Shown here one piece after another: positions 15,834-27,408 of a DNA stretch of 64,000 nt. Source of the stretch: an uncultured Chloroflexia bacterium (GTDB lineage: Bacteria; Chloroflexota; Limnocylindria; Limnocylindrales; CSP1-4); assembly GCA_963713975.1 (NCBI GenBank), contig OY970218.1, forward strand, positions 1,376,001-1,440,000, written 5' to 3'. Position 1 is the first letter of the stretch. Every line of letters begins with the position of its first letter. Position numbers and translations under genes: made by a program. The notes below the pieces were generated by a model. The model saw only the letters and a program-made list of their open reading frames with translations. It was not told the DNA's origin and did not search any database.

Positions 15834-16502
15834 CTAGCTCGCCGCTGGGCTCGGGGAGACCTCCGGGGCGACGGACGGCACCTCGGACGGCTCAGTGCTG
15901 GCCGCGGCGCTGGGTTCGGCGCTGGGTTCGGCGCTGGGTTCGGCGCTCGGCGGCGCGGCGCTGGGCGGTTCGGCGGAAGGCTCAACGCTCGGTTCGGCGC
16001 TGGCGGACGCGGACGGCGCCACCGACGGCGTGACCGACGGCTCGACGCTCACCGATGGCGCCTCGGTCTCAATCGGCGTGGGCGTCGCGAGCAAGGTGCC
16101 CAGGAACCCGTTCCTGCCCCCGATGAGGCCCCAGGCGAGGATCGCCACGAAGACGCCGACAACCGCGATCACGAAGATCGCCGAGGCCCGGTCCGTGACC
16201 TTGACTGCCTCATGGGCGACCGATGGCGCTGCCTGCGGCTGCTTTGAGCCTGCGTCCTTGGCGCCACGCTTCTTGCCGCCCGTGGCGGCTCCGTCTGCTG
16301 CGGGTGCGGCTGCCGCGGCCCCCAGCTCGGCATCCTCCGCGCTGAGCGTCCACGCTTCGGGCTCGGCGACGGCCGACTCGTCCGAGTCTGTCTCGTCTGC
16401 GGCGGTCTCGGCGTCGGGCGCCGTCTCGTCCTCGGGCGTGGTGCTGGCATCCGTCGCGGCTTCGGGGCCGTTGGCCTCCGGGTCGCGTTCCTGGTCCGTC
16501 AT
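15834..16502 (-). CDS. Single-TM protein with an acidic N-terminus and a Ser/Pro/Ala-rich (SAEP repeat) C-terminus
   Basis: GAGGAG SD, one hydrophobic helix, 12-nt tandem repeats at 15905-15947. Confidence 0.7.
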   Translation of the reverse strand: MTDQERDPEANGPEAATDASTTPEDETAPDAETAADETDSDESAVAEPEAWTLSAEDAELGAAAAAPAADGAATGGKKRGAKDAGSKQPQAAPSVAHEAVKVTDRASAIFVIAVVGVFVAILAWGLIGGRNGFLGTLLATPTPIETEAPSVSVEPSVTPSVAPSASASAEPSVEPSAEPPSAAPPSAEPSAEPSAEPSAAASTEPSEVPSVAPEVSPSPAAS

Positions 16503-16600: not shown

Positions 16601-18781
16601 TCACGCCTCGCGCACGGCCTTCACGAACAGCCCGGCAACACCCGCACCCACCGAGATCACGCCCGCCGCGAAGATCACGGGCCCTGGCCCGAGGACGGTG
16701 ATGAATAGGCCGCCCAGCGCCATCGCCAGCGACATCCCGCCGAACACCAGGGCGAACCGGAGGCTGACCACGCGCCCCATCAGCTCCGGCGGCGTGCGCT
16801 CCTGGAACAGCGTCTGGCTGGGGATCACGAAGGCCATGTTGGCGATGCCAAGGCCAAAGAGGAGTCCCAGCACCAGCGGGAGGCTGTCGGTGAGTCCCAG
16901 CACCATCGTGCCCAGGCCGAAGGCGATGTACGCCCCGATGATCAGCCTGCCCTTCCGGGCTCGGCCGGCCACTGCGCCCAGGGCGAAGCCGCCGATGAGG
17001 CTGCCGATGCCGATCGCCGTCTCCATGAAGGCGTACGTGGCCCGGTACGCGTCGCCGTCGCCGGGCGTGATCTCGCGGGCCAGGATCAGGCTGGCGACGG
17101 TGAGCACACCGAGCGAGAACTGCCCCGCGGTGCCCTGCAGGGTGTTGGCCAGCAGGACGGTCTCGTGGCGCAGGAACGCCCAGCCGGCCCTGAGGTCCTG
17201 GACGACGGTCGTGTGCGGCTCCTCGTACCTGGCGCCGCCGCCGTCCGGTGCCTCGATGTCGCCGGCATCCTCGGGGCCCCGGGCACGGCGGGCCAGCGGC
17301 GGCACGACCATCGTGCCCAGCAACACCGCGGAGGCGAGGTAGGTCACCGCGTCGAGCCAGAACGCAAGGAACAGCGAGGACTGCAGGAACGCAACGAACA
17401 GGCCGGCGATCGGGTAGTTGATGACGTCGGCAAGTGTCTCGCCCACCCACATGGCCGAGTTCGCGGCGAGCAGATCCTCCTCGGGAACGATGCGCGGCAG
17501 CACGGCCTGGCGGGCCGGCCGGAAGAAGATCGAGACCGTGGTGATCAGGAACACGATCGGGTAGGCGAGCCACACGTTCGTGAGCACCGCCACGGGAAGG
17601 AGCAGGACGCCCGCCGCTCGCAGGATGTCGGACACGATGAGGACCTGCTTCTGGTCCCAGCGGTCCACGTAGGCACCCGCGATCGGCGACAGGAGCAGGT
17701 TGGGGACCATGCCCATGAAGAAGGTCAATGCGACGGCCAGCGGCGAGTTCGTCAGCTCGTAGACAAACGCCGCCAGGGCGATCTGATTTACCCGGTCGCC
17801 GAACAGGCTGATGACCTGCCCGGCCCACAATGCCGAGAAGTTGGGGTTGAGCGCCAGACGCACGTACGGGTGCTGGCGCAGGTGCTCGAGGGCTGCCGGT
17901 CGCCGCCTCCCGATCGGGAAGGTCCCAAGGCCTTCCGCGGCCAGCGCGCCGCCGAAGCCCGTCTGGCCCGGGGCGGCCATCGCCGCCACGCGATCGTCGC
18001 CGGGTTCATCCGCCAGCGGGGCGAGGGCGGGTGAGGCCAGGCCCATGCCCCGCGCACCCATCATCAGCGGTCGCTCCAGGGCGATCGCGTCATCGAGCGA
18101 CGGCGTCAGGCCCGTGCCGGACCGGATCGCGATGCCGTCCTTGTCCACCGGGGCCGGCGTCCCGGGCAGGCGGGCGGTTCCGGCGAATCCGAGGTAGCGG
18201 CCCGTCTTGGCCTCGTCCGACGCGCGTCGTGCCTCGGCGGGTGTCCGCAGCAGCGTCGCGAAGAGGAAGAACGCCAGGCCCGCGGTCAGGAAGATGTCGC
18301 CGATCGACGCCACGTTGCGGAAGGGCTCGAAGGGGATCGGGATGATGTCGCCCAGCGCGCCAAGCCGGAGCAGGAACTCAGTGCTAAGGGGACCCGACAG
18401 CTCGAAGTGGAGCACCGAGTCCAGCGGCGGCGTCAGCCCCGAGGCGGCGTAGGCCTCATCCCAGACCGGCATGTAGCCACCGTTGGACAGGATCGCGATC
18501 GCGTTCAGCGAGACCCCGATGAAGGCGAGAGCGAGACCTGGATACCAGCGGTTGCGCCACAGGGCGAACAGCAGCAGCCCGTAGGCCAGGCCCAGCAGGG
18601 GCGCCCGGAACGCGTCCACGACCTGCACCCCGTACCCGAGGGCGGCCTCCGTGGCGAACCGGATGATGACCGCGAGGAACAGCAGCGGCAGGTAGCGGAG
18701 CCGGATCAGCGCCAGGTTCTCGAGCCGGCCGCCAAGGAGCAGGCCTAGGACGAGCCCGAGCGCGATACCGCCGATCAGCAT
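16601..18781 (-). CDS. DUF5317-like membrane domain fused to an MFS transporter
   Basis: N-terminal GGRLENL, NGGYMPV, LGDIIP and SIGD motifs; linker; C-terminal MFS with FSALWAGQVISLFGD, GAYVDRWDQK and QERTPPELMGRV. Confidence 0.8.
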   Translation of the reverse strand: MLIGGIALGLVLGLLLGGRLENLALIRLRYLPLLFLAVIIRFATEAALGYGVQVVDAFRAPLLGLAYGLLLFALWRNRWYPGLALAFIGVSLNAIAILSNGGYMPVWDEAYAASGLTPPLDSVLHFELSGPLSTEFLLRLGALGDIIPIPFEPFRNVASIGDIFLTAGLAFFLFATLLRTPAEARRASDEAKTGRYLGFAGTARLPGTPAPVDKDGIAIRSGTGLTPSLDDAIALERPLMMGARGMGLASPALAPLADEPGDDRVAAMAAPGQTGFGGALAAEGLGTFPIGRRRPAALEHLRQHPYVRLALNPNFSALWAGQVISLFGDRVNQIALAAFVYELTNSPLAVALTFFMGMVPNLLLSPIAGAYVDRWDQKQVLIVSDILRAAGVLLLPVAVLTNVWLAYPIVFLITTVSIFFRPARQAVLPRIVPEEDLLAANSAMWVGETLADVINYPIAGLFVAFLQSSLFLAFWLDAVTYLASAVLLGTMVVPPLARRARGPEDAGDIEAPDGGGARYEEPHTTVVQDLRAGWAFLRHETVLLANTLQGTAGQFSLGVLTVASLILAREITPGDGDAYRATYAFMETAIGIGSLIGGFALGAVAGRARKGRLIIGAYIAFGLGTMVLGLTDSLPLVLGLLFGLGIANMAFVIPSQTLFQERTPPELMGRVVSLRFALVFGGMSLAMALGGLFITVLGPGPVIFAAGVISVGAGVAGLFVKAVREA

Positions 18782-18815
18782 CCGAGGATTGTGGGGCCCC
18801 CGGGGGCCCGCGTGC

Positions 18816-20249
18816 TCAGTTCGGCTCGGCCGGGCTCGCGGCCGGCCCGGTCTTGGTGAGCAGGGATGCCTGCGGCGTCACCTCGGCGGTGGCGTCGGGG
18901 CCGACAGCGGCGGACCGGTTTGCGTGCTGTGCGATCAGCGGAATGGGCGGTGTCTGCGTCGTGCGCCCGGGGTCTTCGACACCCTCCACCCAGTGCGTGT
19001 TGACGAACGCGTCCACCACCCTGGGGTCGAACTGGATCCCGGCGAACTTGCGCAGCTCGGCGAGCGCCTGCTCCGCCGTGAGCGGCGTCATCCGGTAAGG
19101 GCGAGCCGCGGTCATCGCCTCGAACGAGTCCGCGACGTGGAGGATCCGCGCCAGCAGCGGGATCTCATCGCCGATCAGCCGATCCGGGTAGCCGGACCCG
19201 TTGTACCACTCGTGGTGGTGGCGGATGATCGGCAGCTCGCGCGCCAGGCGAGTGACCGGCTGGATGATCTGCGCTCCCAGCACGGGGTGCGAGTTCATCA
19301 TCATCCGCTCGTCCCTGGTCAGCCGGTCCTGCTTGAGCAGCACCGAGTCCGGGACGCCGATCTTGCCCACGTCGTGCAGGAGGCCGCCCCACTCCAGGGC
19401 CTCCAGGTCCGCAACGCCGAGCCGCATCACGGCGCCTATGTCGCCGGCGATCGTCTTCACCCGCCTGGAGTGCTGCCCAGTGAACGGGTCGCGGTTGTCC
19501 ACGGCGTGCGCCAGCGCATCGATGGTCTGCGTGAACATCTCGCGCATCTCGGTGTAGTTGAGGTACGCCAGCCGGGTCATGTACAGCGGCAGCGCGAACA
19601 GCAGGCTGGCCCAGGCCGCGATGACGTAGATCTGCGCCATCAGCCAGCCAATCGGCGCAATGCTGAGGATGCTAGACGCGATCCCCTCGGCCTCGCCTCG
19701 GATAACGCCAGTCGCACTCTGGCCCGTGCGGAGCGACACCGACACGGCCGTGAGGCCAGCATTCAGCGCCAGGAAGACACCTCCGCCGACCATTGCCACC
19801 ACGAACGAGACGGGATCCTCAAGAGGACGACCGGGGACACCAAAGCCGCGCATCACGAGGCCCGCAACGACAATCGGCATCACCACCCCGCCTCGATTGG
19901 CGAGTGTGCCGTACCAAGGGATCTTGAGGCGGATTTCCCTCATCTCAGTGATTCCGATCAAGCCCACCCACGCGCCTGCGGTCGGACCACCCAAGACCGT
20001 TGCCGCCAATAGCGTCGAGACTGAGACTGCAAAGACCGCACCACGGGGCATCCGGACGGGTAGCGCGGATGCAACGAGCGTAACCATGATCCAGAAAACC
20101 AGTCCCGCCACCGGAGCAGCAGCAACTCCGAAGACTTCAGGTGCCAAGGCAATGTCGCTTGCGAGGGGAATCAGAAGAGTCGTGGCAATCAGCGCAATTG
20201 CGCTCATCACCACGACCCCAGTGATATAGAGCTTCAGGTTCCTCGACAT
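18816..20249 (-). CDS. Membrane-bound HD-GYP phosphodiesterase with a multi-TM N-terminal sensor
   Basis: HDVGK, HHEWYNGSGYP, RILHVAD and RPYR motifs; about 6-7 TM helices in the first ~230 aa. Confidence 0.9.
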   Translation of the reverse strand: MSRNLKLYITGVVVMSAIALIATTLLIPLASDIALAPEVFGVAAAPVAGLVFWIMVTLVASALPVRMPRGAVFAVSVSTLLAATVLGGPTAGAWVGLIGITEMREIRLKIPWYGTLANRGGVVMPIVVAGLVMRGFGVPGRPLEDPVSFVVAMVGGGVFLALNAGLTAVSVSLRTGQSATGVIRGEAEGIASSILSIAPIGWLMAQIYVIAAWASLLFALPLYMTRLAYLNYTEMREMFTQTIDALAHAVDNRDPFTGQHSRRVKTIAGDIGAVMRLGVADLEALEWGGLLHDVGKIGVPDSVLLKQDRLTRDERMMMNSHPVLGAQIIQPVTRLARELPIIRHHHEWYNGSGYPDRLIGDEIPLLARILHVADSFEAMTAARPYRMTPLTAEQALAELRKFAGIQFDPRVVDAFVNTHWVEGVEDPGRTTQTPPIPLIAQHANRSAAVGPDATAEVTPQASLLTKTGPAASPAEPN

Positions 20250-20338
20250 CTGTCCCCAGTCCCCGATGTGTAACGGGACTCTAGCCCGTCCGCCCTATTC
20301 GGGTGAACAGGACTTGAGTACTGAGGTGAGGTCTCAGG

Positions 20339-20428
20339 CTAGAAGCCCTTCAACGAAGCTCCTCCGGCGAGCGCCATTGCGGCGACTGCGCCTAGAGCAA
20401 CCAGGGCTCGCATGAGGCGATCCTTCAT
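20339..20428 (-). CDS. 29-aa micropeptide MKDRLMRALVALGAVAAMALAGGASLKGF, a putative signal-peptide-like precursor
   Basis: Translated by hand; GGAGGA SD at 20436-20441, 7 nt from the ATG; n/h/c signal-like layout. Confidence 0.8.
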   Translation of the reverse strand: MKDRLMRALVALGAVAAMALAGGASLKGF

Positions 20429-20454
20429 CGGTCGATCCTCCGCGTCCCTAACCC

Positions 20455-20487
20455 TTACCAGCCCTTGAAGACCTGGATCGGTGCCAC
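20455..20487 (-). CDS. 10-aa micropeptide MAPIQVFKGW (GTG start)
   Basis: Perfect AGGAGGT SD at 20494-20500, 6 nt from the GTG; C-terminus FKGW resembles LKGF of the neighbouring peptide. Confidence 0.65.
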   Translation of the reverse strand: MAPIQVFKGW

Positions 20488-20520
20488 GCTCGTACCTCCT
20501 TGCGGCCTCCGTGTCCTAAG

Positions 20521-20557
20521 AACACGAAAACCGACCTGACTCGAAAGCCGGTCGGTT
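20521..20557 (-). terminator. Intrinsic terminator forming the riboswitch expression platform
   Basis: Minus strand AACCGACC-GGCT-TTCG-AGTC-A-GGTCGGTT followed by TTCGTGTT; the 5' arm is the 3' end of the aptamer. Confidence 0.75.
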
Positions 20558-20628
20558 GCACTACTCACTCCGCCCCCACCCTAAGTGCCCAATTCAGGTG
20601 GCGGCATCAGCGCGTTCCGAGCGTTTCC
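20545..20628 (-). ncRNA. Cyclic di-GMP-II riboswitch
   Basis: Minus strand GGAAC..TGATG..CCACCT-GAATTGGGCACTT-AGGGTGG..GAGTGAGTAGTGCAACCGACC matches class-II hallmarks, including the GCACT/AGTGC pseudoknot. Confidence 0.9.
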
Positions 20629-20665
20629 TTGCTTGCACAGTACGTTGGTACTAGTGCAGGGCCGG

Positions 20666-20695
20666 ACTATAGGTACGGTCAACATCACCGGTCAA
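20666..20695 (-). promoter_or_regulatory. Sigma70-type promoter for the riboswitch/peptide/HD-GYP transcript
   Basis: TTGACC-N18-TATAGT on the minus strand. Confidence 0.7.
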
Positions 20696-20764
20696 TACGC
20701 AACCCTACCTATGTGCACCATGCCACCTGGCAGGTCGGGCTGAGGCCGTTCGCCTCAATCCGGC

Positions 20765-23700
20765 TCAAATGTCGTCGAATCGTGGGGGATCCGCGCCTAA
20801 CTCTCCCCGGATGTAGGCGGCATAGTGAGCGTACTGTTCGGCGGCCGCCGCATGCCTATCACCCGCCTTGTAGGCCTTCAGGAGCGCGAGCTCGATCCCA
20901 TCTGCACCAGGATCCACGGCCAGCATGGCCTGAGCCAGGCGCGTCGCACGGTCGATGTTGCCCTCTGCCGTGGCTCGTCGGATGCCAGACTCCACGGACG
21001 CGAGAACGGACGCGTGGAGGTTCTCGCGGTAGCTTGTCGCCCAATCCTCATACGTGAAGTCCAGGGCATACCTGCCGCGATACGTGGCAACGAGCTGGTC
21101 GAGCGCGTCCTCCTTGTCACTACAAGTGACGTCCACGAGCCGCTGGCACTTGCGGCTCTGACTGTCCACCAGGGCCGGGTGTAGCGATAGGACGTCACCA
21201 TCGAACTCCACGTACCCAGCGCTCGTGCCCTCTCGGTACGTGGGCTCGAAGACTCGGCGAAGGTAGTAGATCGTCTGGTGCAGGGAGTTGACCGCCGTGT
21301 CGGGACCCAAGTCGGGCCAGATCGCGTCCAGAGCCTCATCACGCGTGGCTGCCATCCCCGGGCGGGAGGCCACGAAGCACAAGAGGCCCATGACCTTGCG
21401 GCGCAGCGTTCTTACATGGTTCTCCACTCCGATCTGAACCGTGACCGGCCCAAGATCGTGGATGAGTACTCGAGGCGCCAGTCGATGGGTGATCTCCGCA
21501 GCGATGGGCCGTAGCCACTTCCGTGACGCAGCAGCGGCGCGCAAGGCAGAGGCGTCATGCTCGTTGCCGATGTCTGCAAGGAGCCTTGCCGCAAGCGGGT
21601 CAGCCTGGTAGACCATCCTCAGGGCCGTAATCCATCGGTCTGGTCGAAGCGTGGCCTCACGGGTGACGCGGAGCCGACTCTCGGTGTCAAGCTCCGGCAG
21701 ACTCCGACACACTTCATCGGCGAGCATCGACAGAACATGATCCTCATCAGGCATGAGGCGGGCAACGGCGCCGTCAGGCCGCCCATCCTGCAATCCTCGT
21801 AGCAGGTCGGCGATCACGGCCTCCAGGCGGGAGCCCTGAGCCGCGGCGATCCGTGTGAGTTCCGCGATTTGGCCATCTGCGAGCCTCGAGCGGGTGGCGA
21901 GCGAGATGCGCGCTCGAAGCAGGCAGACTCGGAACTTGCCAGCGGCATCTTGGAGAGCCCCGCCGGCCAGCGCCACGCGCTCAGCTGCTATGACCGGCTC
22001 CCCACGACGTAGCGCGATGGTGCCGGTTGCCACCGCCCAAGCTCCCAAGTAGCCCGTTGACAGTGCAGCTTGACCAACGCGAGCCGCCGCAGACTCCGCG
22101 CGCTCGAGGGAGCCGTAGTCCCCGAGCAAGCGAGCCGCCTCGATCGCTGCCTCGTCTCGCGCAACTGGAGTGGACGCTTCGTCGATTAGTGCAGCCATTC
22201 GATCAAGCGGCTCAGTGGCGCCAAGTTGAAGCTGTGCCGCAATCCGAACGGCAATGGCGGCGACTCTCTCCGGACTCGTTGGAGACGCCCCGAGGCTTAG
22301 CTCGGCCGTGCCGGCTACGTCGGCCGCGTCTCGGCTGCGTCCCATCCAAAGCAGGATCACTGCGAGGTTAAGGCGGGTGATCCCTGCGTACCGGACGTGG
22401 CCCGCGGCATCCTGAATCTGGGCTAGACCGACTAGGTAGTCGGCAACGGCGGCCAGACTGCCTTCCTGCTGAGTACTCCAGACGGCTAGCGAGGCCTCGG
22501 CGACCATTCGCTCCGCAGGTGCTAGGTCCCCTTCCATTGCTCGCGTCGCGAGCTTGATCGACTGCTCGTCAAATCCATGTCGAGCCAGAATCGCCGTTAG
22601 GTTGAGGAGGCCCAAGCTCGCTAGCGAGGTGCCCTCGCCGACTTGTGAGCCCAACTGCGCCAGTTCGATCGCTCTGGCGAGATGCCCGCGCTCGAGCTCG
22701 AGCCGTGACCGGAGGATGAGAACGCCGGGTCGGTCGGGAGGCCCGGCCGAACCGTCTAGAAACTGCCGCGCCAACTCAAACCCTCCGGATGCAATGATCG
22801 AGGGGATGGCTGCGTCTAGGGTCCGGGCAGCCGAGTTCATGTCGCCGGCTGCGCGATAGTGCCAGGTGGCCGGGAGCCAAGCGGAATTCTCCAGAGCAGT
22901 CCCGAGCGCCTGGTGAAGGTCTCGCACTGCGGCTTCGCCGATTTCGGCTGTCAGGCGTGCCACGAGGAACTCGCGGACCAGGGGGTGGAACCGGTGGGGC
23001 GATTCACGGTCTGGCCGGGAGAGGAGCCCGAGCCGTTCGGACTCGCGGATGGACACCGCGATGTCATCGGCAGGCCGCTCGTCCACCAAGACCGCCATGT
23101 TCACGTCCACGGCCGTGAGCACCGCGACACGGGTCAGGAAGTGCTGAAGCTCCGGCGGGAGCGTGGCGAGCACCTCCTCGGCCAGGAAGTCATACAAGTC
23201 GCCGCGTGACGCATCGAGGTGGGCGACCAGGACTCGAGGGTCGTTGTGCTCCTCAATGCTTGTGCGGACGAGCGTGAGCAGGGCCGCCCACCCCTCCGTC
23301 CGATCGCACAGGTCAGCAGCAACCTGGGCGTCCAGGGGTTGCCGGTAGGCGTCCCTGAACAGGCGGGACGTCTCGTCGAGGTCGAAGCAGAGGTCCCTCC
23401 CTTCGATGGCCAGCACGCCGCCCCGGGCGCGAATGCGCCCCAGCGGGAAGGCGGGTGTGGAGCGTGTTGCGATGACCACGGAGTAGCCAGGTGCGGTCCG
23501 ATCCAGGAGGGCTCGCACGATGGGGTCCGTGTCCGGGCATCCGTCCACGACGTGGTAGTCATCGAAGATCAGCGTCAGGCCGTGCGAGCTACCAGTCCCG
23601 AACTCCGCCATCTCGCGGGCGATGCTGACGGTGAGGTCGTGCTGCGTCGGACCACCCGGCCCGAGGGAACCGAGGAGGTCGAGCGTCTGCGGCGCGAACC

Positions 23701-23977
23701 CGGGGTCGATCTCGCGACCGCTCGCGACCAGGTGGCGGATGAAGGTGAGCCAGTCCCGGTCATCCGCCTCCAGCCGGTACCAGGCCGTCATTCGCGTCGT
23801 CTGGACGGCCCAATCGGCGAGCAGCGTGGTCTTGCCGAAGCCGGCCTCCGCGACGATGAGGCCGAGGCGTCCCGCAGCCGCGCGGTCCAGCCACGAGTTG
23901 AGGCGCTCGCGCGACAGCGTGTCGTCGCGCGGCGGCGGGCAGTGGATCTTGACCGGCTGCACGGGCAGGGGATTCAT
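20765..23977 (-). CDS. Large MalT-like STAND ATPase / TPR / SARP-wHTH-BTAD transcriptional regulator
   Basis: AEAGFGKTT Walker A, FDDYH, TEGWAA and RFHPLVREFL; helical TPR-like middle; TRDEALDAIWPD, NSLHQTIYYLRR and YRGRYALDFTYEDW; start set at MNPLPVQPVKI (the ORF extends to 24241). Confidence 0.85.
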   Translation of the reverse strand: MNPLPVQPVKIHCPPPRDDTLSRERLNSWLDRAAAGRLGLIVAEAGFGKTTLLADWAVQTTRMTAWYRLEADDRDWLTFIRHLVASGREIDPGFAPQTLDLLGSLGPGGPTQHDLTVSIAREMAEFGTGSSHGLTLIFDDYHVVDGCPDTDPIVRALLDRTAPGYSVVIATRSTPAFPLGRIRARGGVLAIEGRDLCFDLDETSRLFRDAYRQPLDAQVAADLCDRTEGWAALLTLVRTSIEEHNDPRVLVAHLDASRGDLYDFLAEEVLATLPPELQHFLTRVAVLTAVDVNMAVLVDERPADDIAVSIRESERLGLLSRPDRESPHRFHPLVREFLVARLTAEIGEAAVRDLHQALGTALENSAWLPATWHYRAAGDMNSAARTLDAAIPSIIASGGFELARQFLDGSAGPPDRPGVLILRSRLELERGHLARAIELAQLGSQVGEGTSLASLGLLNLTAILARHGFDEQSIKLATRAMEGDLAPAERMVAEASLAVWSTQQEGSLAAVADYLVGLAQIQDAAGHVRYAGITRLNLAVILLWMGRSRDAADVAGTAELSLGASPTSPERVAAIAVRIAAQLQLGATEPLDRMAALIDEASTPVARDEAAIEAARLLGDYGSLERAESAAARVGQAALSTGYLGAWAVATGTIALRRGEPVIAAERVALAGGALQDAAGKFRVCLLRARISLATRSRLADGQIAELTRIAAAQGSRLEAVIADLLRGLQDGRPDGAVARLMPDEDHVLSMLADEVCRSLPELDTESRLRVTREATLRPDRWITALRMVYQADPLAARLLADIGNEHDASALRAAAASRKWLRPIAAEITHRLAPRVLIHDLGPVTVQIGVENHVRTLRRKVMGLLCFVASRPGMAATRDEALDAIWPDLGPDTAVNSLHQTIYYLRRVFEPTYREGTSAGYVEFDGDVLSLHPALVDSQSRKCQRLVDVTCSDKEDALDQLVATYRGRYALDFTYEDWATSYRENLHASVLASVESGIRRATAEGNIDRATRLAQAMLAVDPGADGIELALLKAYKAGDRHAAAAEQYAHYAAYIRGELGADPPRFDDI

Positions 23978-24338
23978 CGGGAACCCGCCCGTGGTGCCGC
24001 CGAGCAGCACGGAAGCGGCCAAGCCCGGCCCGACGGCGACCAGCCCATGCCCGTTGCGTTCACCCCTCGCCCGCGGTGTTGGCCGGGGCCTGGGGGCCGG
24101 GCCCATGCCACCACTCGCCGGAGACGATACGGCAGCGCGATGTGGGGCCGGGGCGTGCTTCTGCACGGGTTGGACCTGGTGCGCGGTCTCGATGGGGTCG
24201 GGGAGGCGATCGCGGTCAGACCGCCGAGTGGTCGGGAGCATGTGGCGAATGGTGCCGGGCGCCGCTCAACGCGCGCTTATGCGCTCAGGCCCGATCCGGT
24301 CTGCCTCGCGAGTCGCCGGATCGACGATCCGCCGCAGC

Positions 24339-26058: not shown

Positions 26059-27408
26059 TCAACCGACGTCCGCGAACCGCTCCCCGGCGTAGTTGACGAA
26101 GCGTGTCTGCGCCTTCTTGAACCACAGGTCGATCTCGCCGGTGGGGCCGTTGCGGTGCTTGGCCAGCTTCAGCTTGACCACCTCGCCCTCTGTGGACTGG
26201 TCCTCCGAGCCTCGTTCCTTCTCGCGCCACAGGAACATGACCAGGTCCGCGTCCTGCTCGATCGAGCCCGATTCCCGGAGGTCCGAGAGCCGGGGCTCCC
26301 GGGACTCACGCATCTCGGGCTGGCGGGAGAGCTGGCTCAGGGCGATCACCGGGACCTTGAGCTCGCGGGCGAGTGCCTTGAGCCCCCGGGTGATCTCGGA
26401 GACCTCCTGCACGCGGTTGGCGTCCCGCGTGGTGGTGGACGACTGCATGAGCTGGAGGTAGTCCACGATTACGAGGTCCAGGCCGGTCTCCGCCTGGAGG
26501 CGGCGGGCCTTGGTGCGCAGCTCCATGGTGGAGATGTTGGGCGTGTCGTCGATGTAGATCGGCGCCTCGGAGAGGGTGTTCATCGCCGGGGCGATCCGGG
26601 CGAAGTCCAGCTCCTCGAGGAAGCCCGTGCGCAGGCGCTGGGAGTCGATGTTGGCGACGGACGAGAGCAGCCGCAGGACGAGCTGCTCCTTGCTCATCTC
26701 GAGGCTGAACAGGCCGACGCTCTTGCGGTCCCGGGCCGCAGCGTGCTCTGCGATGTTGAGCGCGAAGCTGGTCTTGCCCACCGACGGACGGGCCGCGAGG
26801 ACCACGAGGTCGCTCTTCTGGAGGCCGGTCGTCAGCTGGTCCAGGTCCTGGAAGCCGGTGCGGACGCCGCTGATCTCACCACGATGTTCGTGCAGGTAGT
26901 CCAGCCGGTCATAGGCATCGTGGAGCAGGGTCTTGAGCTCCGAGAAGCCGGCGGCGACCCGGCGCTGGCTGACGGCGAAGAGCTCCGCCTCAGCCCGGTC
27001 GATCGCCTCCTGGATCTCCGCCGGGTCCTCGTAGCCGATCCCGGCGATCTTGCCGGCCGCGGAGATGAGGTTCCGCAGCAGCGACTTCCGCTCGACGATC
27101 CGCGCGTACTGCGCGGCGTGCACCGCGGTCGGGGTCTGGTTGGACAACGTGCCGAGGTAGGCGCGTCCACCCATCGCCTCGAGGTCACCGGTGCGGTCCA
27201 GCGCCTCTGCGACGGTCACGACGTCCACGGGCTCCCGCCGCTCCGAGAGATCCAGCATCACAGCGAAGACGCGGCCGTGGGCCTGCCGGTAGAAGTCCTC
27301 CGGCTTGAGGAAGTCGGCGACCTCGATGATCGCGTCCCGGTCGATCAGGATGGACCCTAGGACGGATTGCTCGGCTTCGATGGATTGCGGCGGCAGGCGG
27401 TCGATCAT
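26059..27408 (-). CDS. dnaB: Replicative DNA helicase
   Basis: PPQSIEAEQSVLG, AARPSVGKT, IVDYLQLM, LSDLRESGSIEQDAD and KHRNGPTG motifs. Confidence 0.98.
   Translation of the reverse strand: MIDRLPPQSIEAEQSVLGSILIDRDAIIEVADFLKPEDFYRQAHGRVFAVMLDLSERREPVDVVTVAEALDRTGDLEAMGGRAYLGTLSNQTPTAVHAAQYARIVERKSLLRNLISAAGKIAGIGYEDPAEIQEAIDRAEAELFAVSQRRVAAGFSELKTLLHDAYDRLDYLHEHRGEISGVRTGFQDLDQLTTGLQKSDLVVLAARPSVGKTSFALNIAEHAAARDRKSVGLFSLEMSKEQLVLRLLSSVANIDSQRLRTGFLEELDFARIAPAMNTLSEAPIYIDDTPNISTMELRTKARRLQAETGLDLVIVDYLQLMQSSTTTRDANRVQEVSEITRGLKALARELKVPVIALSQLSRQPEMRESREPRLSDLRESGSIEQDADLVMFLWREKERGSEDQSTEGEVVKLKLAKHRNGPTGEIDLWFKKAQTRFVNYAGERFADVG

Follow-up and report, generated by a model that had tools for sequence, protein, structure and literature searches.

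A conserved pair of micropeptide reading frames lies behind a c-di-GMP-II riboswitch in a phosphodiesterase and DUF5317 module of Limnocylindria

The 64,000-nt stretch of contig OY970218.1 analysed here (the window) carries on its minus strand a module in which a gene for a STAND regulator is followed by a sigma-70-type promoter, a c-di-GMP-II aptamer with its terminator, a 10-codon and a 29-codon open reading frame (ORF), a gene for a MASE9-HD-GYP protein and a gene for a fusion of DUF5317 with a major facilitator superfamily (MFS) transporter (Table 1). We interpret this module as an operon that would be induced by cyclic di-GMP (c-di-GMP) and would carry its own brake, built on an older micropeptide cassette whose micropeptide works with DUF5317 at the membrane; from sequence, we put the probability of this interpretation at about 0.6. 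The source genome is a single contig of 3.6 Mb, and the contig titles of its relatives name Chloroflexota, class Candidatus Limnocylindria. The module recurs throughout this class, a widespread uncultured lineage of soil and wetland, and its conservation is far beyond chance. An original prediction made from this DNA had proposed a single co-oriented module here, and that proposal stands, as every part it listed was found on the minus strand at or next to its predicted position and the gene set recurs across same-genus, other-genus and second-family loci. The promoter, an inverted repeat, the aptamer, the terminator and both micro-ORFs all lie within the 515 nt that separate the regulator gene from the HD-GYP gene.

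Conservation was examined in two samples drawn independently of any peptide pattern, namely 14 loci of the same genus and 20 DUF5317-MFS loci from other genera and from family f3 that were fetched without regard to peptides. At all 14 same-genus loci both micro-ORFs lie upstream of an HD-GYP orthologue or paralogue, and in the alignment of these loci the Shine-Dalgarno sites are fixed and differences in the 29-codon ORF fall mainly at third positions. The STAND, HD-GYP and DUF5317-MFS genes also occur together at 13/13 same-genus loci; since the neighbourhood is syntenic within the genus (13/13), this linkage says little on its own. In one genome of the genus, another contig carries a second, diverged copy of the whole module (L044, G013:C7:12900-22377), which keeps both micro-ORFs at 35% identity for the STAND protein and 60% for the HD-GYP protein. 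Among the 20 fusion loci, an HD-GYP gene adjoins in 19 and a STAND regulator in 16. Eighteen of them allowed a judgement on the micro-ORFs, and of these 15 retain an intact long ORF and 16 an intact short ORF; the exceptions are two loci with a disturbed frame and one different paralogue without peptides. Of 301 genomes sampled across the phylum, 92 contain the DUF5317 family (PF17248), which is also matched in Thermus and Thermotoga controls; its fusion to MFS occurs only in families f1 and f3 of Limnocylindria, in 15/15 genomes each, a tally that includes one unpublished genome (G266).

A further collection was obtained with a DNA pattern back-translated from the end of the 29-residue product and scanned over one genome per species. 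At least 120 genome stretches were returned. Among the matches listed, 80/80 come from metagenome-assembled genomes of Chloroflexota, 80/80 have the same gene context, with a STAND and/or HD-GYP homologue beside the peptide, and 78/80 have an HD-GYP gene starting 65-250 nt downstream, the other two being cut by the end of the locus. The original prediction depended on small ORFs being conserved upstream of HD-GYP and DUF5317 genes at homologous loci, and conserved ones are present. Both micro-ORFs are real conserved reading frames, with start and stop in frame in more than 100 loci.

The micro-ORFs themselves were analysed in 124 unique upstream regions, 118 of which contain the long ORF. Its 29-residue product (29-mer) has a basic N-terminus, a hydrophobic core of 19-23 residues followed by Lys/Arg and an aromatic residue, a nearly invariant A-x-A-G-G-A-S/T junction and a 4-residue tail that is L-R-G-F in 47/118 and L-K-G-F in 34/118 and is nearly fixed across two families. 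The transmembrane part varies freely, and the small-residue junction is nearly invariant. Across the 76 long ORFs of exactly 29 codons, the entropy by codon position is 0.87/0.49/1.58, the mark of third-position wobble. The search pattern fixes codons 19-29 of most long ORFs at positions 1 and 2, and the N-terminal codons, which lie outside it, give the same entropy pattern. The 29-codon ORF thereby bears a clear signature of coding sequence. The earlier suggestion that the 29-mer is a precursor agrees with its build, which looks precursor-like in its basic N-terminus, core, conserved junction and tail.

The short ORF, ending in [KR]-x-[WFY], is found in 104 of the 124 regions and has 10 codons in 74/104 and 9 codons in 26/104. 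Its last three residues are KGW in 58 loci, KGF in 20 and KAW, KPW, KSW or KGY in 26. The ten-codon versions have Lys at position -3 in 74/74, Pro at position 3 in 61/74 and a terminal Trp or Phe, with middle codons that vary freely. The next start lies 2-53 nt away, and the long ORF has its own Shine-Dalgarno site. At the 104 loci the last residues of the two peptides pair as W/F (69), F/F (18), W/W (12) and others (5), which we do not count as co-variation because the pairing follows lineage. A search for Pfam and NCBIfam families returned nothing significant for either micropeptide. The 10-residue product (10-mer) may be an intracellular counterpart of the 29-mer tail, or its frame may serve as a leader ORF. 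A variant module occurs in genus g5 (L082, L083, L085), with a weaker aptamer (37.3 bits in L085), a short ORF ending R-V-W and a long ORF ending Y-R-P-F or Y-G-L-F; the short ORF of L083 no longer has a start.

Table 1 Features of the module, listed in the order of the minus strand (window coordinates).
Feature	Position	Strand	Details
STAND regulator (1158 residues)	20765..24241	-	MalT-type NTPase ~96-479, TPR-like sensor ~480-940, OmpR-type winged helix-turn-helix 945-1001, BTAD 1045-1152; alternative start 23977
Sigma-70-type promoter TTGACC-18-TATAGT (predicted)	20666..20695	-	10/12 consensus positions; 1 site vs 0.2 expected in shuffles
GTAC-N4/5-GTAC inverted repeat	20635..20657	-	just 3' of -10 box; hairpin in minimum free energy fold
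c-di-GMP-II aptamer (RF01786)	20543..20626	-	51.1 bits, model 1-84 of 84, E 3.2e-10 (local search)
Intrinsic terminator (predicted), 9-bp stem + T-tract	20519..20553 (hairpin 20529..20553)	-	1 found vs 0.2 expected
10-codon ORF	20455..20487	-	GTG start, AAGGAGG at 20495-20501, ends K-G-W
29-codon ORF	20339..20428	-	GGAGGA at 20436-20441; A-x-A-G-G-A-S junction, L-K-G-F tail
Possible internal promoter TTCACC-18-TAGAGT	20278..20307	-	between 29-codon ORF and HD-GYP gene; read from sequence
MASE9-like domain (1-235) + HD-GYP (246-411) (477 residues)	18816..20249	-	HD_5 139.5 bits (cut-off 27.2)
DUF5317 (26-173) + MFS_1 (318-686), DHA3/EntS-like (EntS/Mef type) (726 residues)	16601..18781	-	DUF5317 90.5 bits, MFS_1 115.2 bits

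The promoter and the aptamer with its terminator, both named in the original prediction, were located in the leader. The promoter ends 40 nt upstream of the aptamer and is nearly invariant in the alignment of 14 loci. The sequence of the GTAC inverted repeat that follows it is kept across genera and both families, which suggests a 5' transcript hairpin and/or an operator. The aptamer is full-length and lies in a 5' leader with an expression platform, as a c-di-GMP-II riboswitch should. Orthologous aptamers from six diverse loci all match the model, at 63.5, 63.5, 61.3, 59.3, 53.4 and 37.3 bits, four of the six scoring above the Rfam gathering score; the core motif is present in 122/124 upstream regions, and aptamer and terminator are nearly invariant across the 14 aligned loci. 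The 5' arm of the terminator overlaps the 3' end of the aptamer by 11 nt (20543-20553), and the leader as a whole is strongly structured (z-score -2.56). In family f3, the GGGCAC of the aptamer occurs a second time, within a small hairpin that immediately precedes the ATG of the short ORF. The genome has three RF01786 matches including that of the module. A c-di-GMP-II match of 53.6 bits (G000:C1:856536-856620) is closely followed by a 185-residue ORF whose N-terminus resembles a signal peptide, and one of 37.3 bits (G000:C1:818241-818325) lies upstream of a 263-residue ORF that appears methyltransferase-like by eye only.

HD-GYP domains are established to hydrolyze c-di-GMP, and the copy in the module keeps the HD and HHE...GYP motifs intact in translation, as expected of a member of PF13487. 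Its N-terminus is a polytopic region of 235 residues, which together with the HD_5 match confirms the multi-transmembrane HD-GYP enzyme of the original prediction. The assignment of this N-terminus to MASE9 (PF20972) comes by way of the orthologues, 15/19 of which match the family when aligned (E up to 1, best E 4.2e-10); the window copy itself scores 11.5 bits (E 0.28) against a gathering score of 24.3.

The regulator combines a MalT-type NTPase module followed by a helical-repeat sensor, the arrangement of STAND/MalT-like proteins, with an OmpR-type winged helix-turn-helix (wHTH) followed by BTAD, the arrangement of SARP/BTAD regulators. The wHTH-BTAD part is C-terminal here, unlike in AfsR. 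Pfam finds AAA_16, BTAD at 41.3 bits (cut-off 22.1) and Trans_reg_C at 23.2 bits, slightly under its cut-off of 26.2. The NCBIfam MalT model matches residues 96-479 with 172.5 bits, far from the equivalog cut-off of 537, so the protein is not a MalT equivalog, and MalT in the PDB (8bob) matches residues 96-467 with E 5.6e-31. The AlphaFold2 model of residues 480-940 is an all-alpha TPR-like repeat with a mean predicted local distance difference test (pLDDT) score of 92. A Foldseek search of the PDB with this model returns TPR proteins as best matches, with APC5 and IFT-A ranked highest, Tom71 bound to a C-terminal tail at rank 10, the Rap protein of phage phi3T with its pheromone at rank 16 (E 1.7e-3) and MalT domain III (1hz4) at rank 36. 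No TPR family is matched in the regulator by Pfam, and the earlier "TPR" call holds as a generic fold match of the model. The original prediction was thus right in calling a large MalT-like ATPase-TPR-BTAD regulator and wrong in ending it at 23977, which is an internal start at residue 89 of a longest ORF that extends to 24241.

The DUF5317 domain of the fusion protein clears the gathering score of its family (25 bits) by a wide margin. Across 38 aligned DUF5317 domains, N77, N93, D145 and D162 are invariant, along with an N-G-G-x-M-P motif. The AlphaFold2 model (pLDDT 94.5, predicted TM-score 0.87) has five long helices, with four short strands between helices 4 and 5, and when the positive-inside rule is applied to this model, the strand region and the invariant polar residues are predicted to face outward. 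The original prediction had called for co-folding the peptides with the module proteins, and the pairing of the 29-mer with the DUF5317 domain gave weak support for a contact: the score is 0.42 against 0.01 for the best control, the runs share at least 93% of contacts, and the partner has a pLDDT of 67 or more. In the calibration, 58/80 solved complexes and 2/110 mismatched pairs reached the mark, counts that apply only roughly to the 29-mer as no protein under 30 residues was included; scores of 0.60 or under came from only 7 of the 80 solved complexes, plus both passing mismatches.

To place the module in a wider context, standalone DUF5317 genes of other Chloroflexota families were viewed with 1.5-kb flanks. 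Of 30 such loci, 15 adjoin an HD-GYP gene (one by a weak match), 8 a wHTH-BTAD part and 5 an MFS gene. In 13 of the 29 loci with enough upstream sequence, the 600 nt before DUF5317 contain a Shine-Dalgarno-led ORF of 30-48 residues, as against 0/29 on the antisense strand of these stretches. A strict tail pattern finds no Limnocylindria-type peptide near standalone DUF5317; these related micropeptides emerged from a looser scan based on build, and they share a basic N-terminus, a hydrophobic core, a small-residue junction of Gly-Ala-Pro type and a short variable tail that differs strongly between Chloroflexota classes. When nine of these cassette loci were enlarged, an upstream regulator of STAND NTPase and wHTH-BTAD build was found in 6/9, with an HD-GYP gene within 6 kb downstream in 5/9 and none within 6 kb in 3/9. 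Since the constant set consists of STAND regulator, micropeptide and DUF5317, the peptide belongs with these and not specifically with the membrane HD-GYP protein. In 20 standalone-DUF5317 loci with the same flanks, no riboswitch match had an E of 0.01 or less. On this comparison of sequences, the HD-GYP enzyme is best described as a frequent output, and the riboswitch, the short ORF and the MFS fusion as Limnocylindria additions to an older cassette. The HD-GYP membrane region had been proposed as the peptide receptor. In Pfam, the regions before HD_5 in four cassette HD-GYPs are PAS-GAF, PAS, one without assignment and one short; because the N-termini of related cassettes vary in this way, or the HD-GYP gene is missing, the receptor role is weakened, and the membrane domain is rejected as the peptide receptor in general.

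Put together, these parts suggest how the operon may work. The sigma-70-type promoter would start a leader RNA carrying the aptamer, which at high c-di-GMP would be stabilized and compete with the terminator for the 11 shared nucleotides, giving read-through; the ON polarity is deduced from this sharing of the aptamer 3' end with the terminator 5' arm. The read-through RNA would then encode the 10-mer, the 29-mer and, unless an internal promoter takes over, the MASE9-HD-GYP and DUF5317-MFS proteins. As HD-GYP activity is established, the phosphodiesterase would lower c-di-GMP and shut the switch again, a negative feedback. The 29-mer most likely inserts with its N-terminus in and its C-terminus out, so that the junction and the K/R-G-F/W tail would come to lie at the outer membrane face, where the Asn/Asp cluster of DUF5317 is also predicted. 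DUF5317 would be the direct partner of the 29-mer and could either cut it to free a short C-terminal peptide or hold it as a small subunit, and the STAND regulator with its TPR-like sensor would control the promoter. A search of sequencing runs listed 13 runs, each covering only a small share of the query words, and no RNA dataset for the locus.

Several observations weigh against this interpretation. The aptamer in the window scores 2.4 bits under the Rfam gathering score of 53.5 and is therefore not listed in the Rfam search of the whole window. Between the 29-codon ORF and the HD-GYP gene, the TTCACC-18-TAGAGT element may be an internal promoter; it is absent from the listing of the consensus promoter scan, its TAGAGT/TAGACT part is kept in other genera, and TG precedes it in some f3 loci. 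If this is a second promoter, the phosphodiesterase need not be under riboswitch control. As the pattern loci, at least 120 in number, were retrieved with a pattern built from the peptide, the conservation of codons 19-29 is partly by construction, and the older cassette is incomplete in that no micropeptide is found within 600 nt upstream in 16/29 standalone-DUF5317 loci. The short ORF has a codon-position entropy of 1.10/1.04/1.20, without periodicity. In family f3 (L088, L090, L091, L094, L095, L117, L119), a 7-8-bp hairpin of -13 to -18 kcal/mol pairs the final codons and the stop of this ORF with the bases that come next and ends immediately ahead of the Shine-Dalgarno site of the long ORF, so that some of the conservation of the short ORF might be due to RNA structure. 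Finally, the DUF5317 model finds no match in the PDB with Foldseek (best E 2.9, TM-score at most 0.26), and without such a match DUF5317 cannot be called a peptidase by homology. The earlier proposal that DUF5317 is the maturase thus loses ground, as there is no detectable similarity to any solved peptidase. The idea of an LspA-like or GxGD-type aspartyl peptidase, which had come from two invariant Asp residues 17 residues apart and a build of four helices with a beta-sheet, was dropped as a homology claim on the same result.

On what the micro-ORFs do, several readings can be compared. That the frames are untranslated and their conservation reflects the RNA structure of a long leader is very improbable: both ORFs are short and unannotated and the leader is indeed structured, but the 29-codon ORF combines third-position wobble with fixed first and second positions, Shine-Dalgarno sites stand at the right distance from frames that are kept intact in so many loci, and analogous ORFs of unrelated nucleotide sequence occur in other Chloroflexota. 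It is rather less improbable, if still on the unlikely side, that the 10-codon ORF serves as a regulatory leader, perhaps along with the end of the 29-codon ORF. Its translation, or ribosome pausing at K-G-W/F-stop, would then reshape the mRNA and set how far the genes downstream are translated, and the peptide would have no role of its own. Only the last three residues, the Pro at position 3 and the length of the short ORF are kept, and this ORF is confined to the riboswitch-bearing version of the cassette, both of which fit a leader, as does the position of the f3 hairpin. This hairpin, however, is not conserved in family f1, where K and W/F are kept nonetheless, and the variable gap to a following ORF that has its own Shine-Dalgarno site does not favour coupling of the two. 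To our knowledge the short ORF matches no ribosome arrest motif.

A possible reading, which we hold tentatively, is that nothing is secreted and the 29-mer remains uncleaved in the membrane, which it spans once, and serves DUF5317(-MFS) and/or the MASE9-HD-GYP protein as a subunit or modulator. MgrB, AcrZ and KdpF are membrane micropeptides that act on partner proteins in this manner. The hydrophobic stretch followed by Lys/Arg and an aromatic residue is a typical membrane-interface anchor, and a tail kept across two families is what a fixed protein contact would give; the co-fold with DUF5317 points the same way, weakly, given the calibration above. MASE9 has also been proposed to bind its ligand inside the membrane (bioRxiv 10.1101/2021.11.05.467447). 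On the other side, a variable transmembrane part next to an invariant junction fits a processing site better than a packing helix, the C-terminal motif shared by the leaderless 10-mer is left without explanation, and the HD-GYP partners elsewhere are cytoplasmic PAS/GAF proteins. Another reading is a diffusible signal of the SHP/RRNPP kind, in which DUF5317 or a general peptidase cuts the 29-mer in or at the membrane, Sec or the fused MFS exports the freed C-terminal peptide of 4-8 residues, the peptide re-enters the cell, the STAND sensor detects it and the 10-mer acts as an intracellular agonist or antagonist. Here the precursor build resembles that of SHP and enterococcal inhibitor precursors, the peptide gene adjoins a regulator with a TPR-like superhelix that has Rap-pheromone and Tom71-tail complexes among its PDB matches, the conserved junction is followed by a tail that changes between classes, and the two peptides have a common free C-terminal motif. 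Against it, no oligopeptide importer was seen in the module and the sensor matches are generic, led by APC5 and IFT-A. Within Limnocylindria, moreover, the tail hardly varies while the identity of the sensor among STAND homologues drops to 25-55%. The co-variation of peptide and sensor called for by the original prediction is therefore not observed; a fixed tail beside a fast-diverging sensor means no co-diversification of signal and receptor, unlike in known pheromone-receptor pairs. We consider such a signal unlikely. The fullest version, an undescribed signalling cassette in which DUF5317 is a new membrane peptidase that uses its two invariant Asp to cut the precursor at the small-residue junction, a 4-16-residue C-terminal peptide is read by the STAND-BTAD sensor and the whole is wired to c-di-GMP in Limnocylindria through a riboswitch gate, an HD-GYP output and a 10-mer acting as mimic or antagonist, asks for more, and we regard it as decidedly doubtful. 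Whether the 29-mer is cut and released or stays as a subunit, and whether the 10-mer is a functional peptide with the recognition motif of the tail or belongs to a leader ORF, these alternatives are compatible with the core statement of a c-di-GMP-induced feedback operon.

Outside the module, the DUF5317-MFS gene is followed by a 222-residue ORF (15834-16502, minus strand), whose product starts with an acidic, disordered region, has a single transmembrane helix and ends in a repeat tail rich in Pro, Ser and Glu. This ORF also lies 3' of the paralogous module and of many orthologous modules. A DnaB replicative helicase gene (26059-27408, minus strand), two genes upstream of the module, shows 80-93% identity in relatives and serves as a synteny anchor.

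Compared with known systems, the module resembles agr in that a small precursor gene adjoins genes for a polytopic membrane protein and a regulator. The agr-like layout that the original prediction proposed is nevertheless untenable, as the defining features of agr were looked for and none was found: neither peptide contains Cys, the thiolactone residue of agr peptides, Pfam finds no AgrB domain in the module, neither Pfam nor the fold makes DUF5317 an AgrB, and the module genes include no histidine kinase and no LytTR response regulator. The likeness to SHP/Rgg and the enterococcal inhibitor (RRNPP) goes further and is, by analogy, one of logic only. As in those systems, the precursor resembles a bare signal peptide whose active part would be expected at its C-terminus, its short gene adjoins that of a regulator with a TPR-like sensor (here by fold, without a Pfam TPR), and a membrane protein and a transporter are encoded alongside. 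For comparison, published work on SHP describes a 24-residue precursor and a 9-residue mature SHP, together with Eep, PptAB and Ami (PMC7564271). By contrast, the regulator is a 1158-residue STAND NTPase with wHTH-BTAD output in place of an HTH-TPR protein, the module lacks genes for Eep, PptAB and Opp/Ami, its host belongs to Chloroflexota and not Bacillota, the tail is nearly invariant across the class, and the output includes a second-messenger phosphodiesterase.

The other points of comparison concern c-di-GMP. As in other c-di-GMP-II riboswitch systems, a full-length aptamer with an overlapping terminator precedes a phosphodiesterase gene in what would be a feedback loop; unlike in those, two micro-ORFs come first after the switch, and the host is an uncultured Chloroflexota class. 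Rpf/DSF of Xanthomonas (RpfC-RpfG) also couples a cell-cell signal to an HD-GYP protein, the signal being a fatty acid and the HD-GYP a response regulator, while here the candidate signal would be peptidic and a membrane sensor domain is joined to the HD-GYP. Like the MASE9-HD-GYP proteins TM1467 of T. maritima and HdgA of S. venezuelae, the enzyme of the module joins a polytopic N-terminal membrane domain to HD-GYP, with the differences that the window copy falls under the Pfam cut-off and that DUF5317 and an associated micropeptide go without mention in the accessible part of the paper by Galperin and Chou, where MASE9-HD-GYP proteins are described without a known ligand (bioRxiv 10.1101/2021.11.05.467447).

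Literature searches found no papers on DUF5317, none linking the c-di-GMP-II riboswitch with Chloroflexi or c-di-GMP with Limnocylindria, and nothing relevant on c-di-GMP-II riboswitches with small ORFs or on HD-GYP with small peptides and quorum sensing. The riboswitch class, HD-GYP enzymes, MASE9, STAND/BTAD regulators and MFS exporters are already known. As far as these searches reach, the conserved micropeptide pair, the link of micropeptide, DUF5317 and STAND regulator, and the position of peptides directly behind a c-di-GMP-II riboswitch appear to be new, and there is a real chance that they represent a new peptide-processing or signalling family.

The module thereby gives DUF5317, a domain without structural relative, a concrete and testable partner in the conserved micropeptide next to it, and it brings in two micropeptide families that lack annotation and escape current gene callers. 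A c-di-GMP-II riboswitch with micropeptides as its first regulated products would tie the second messenger to a possible signal or membrane modulator, and the module offers a candidate ligand for MASE9-HD-GYP proteins. Should the peptide prove to be secreted, the module would be a case of Gram-positive-type peptide signalling outside Bacillota whose output is a second-messenger phosphodiesterase.

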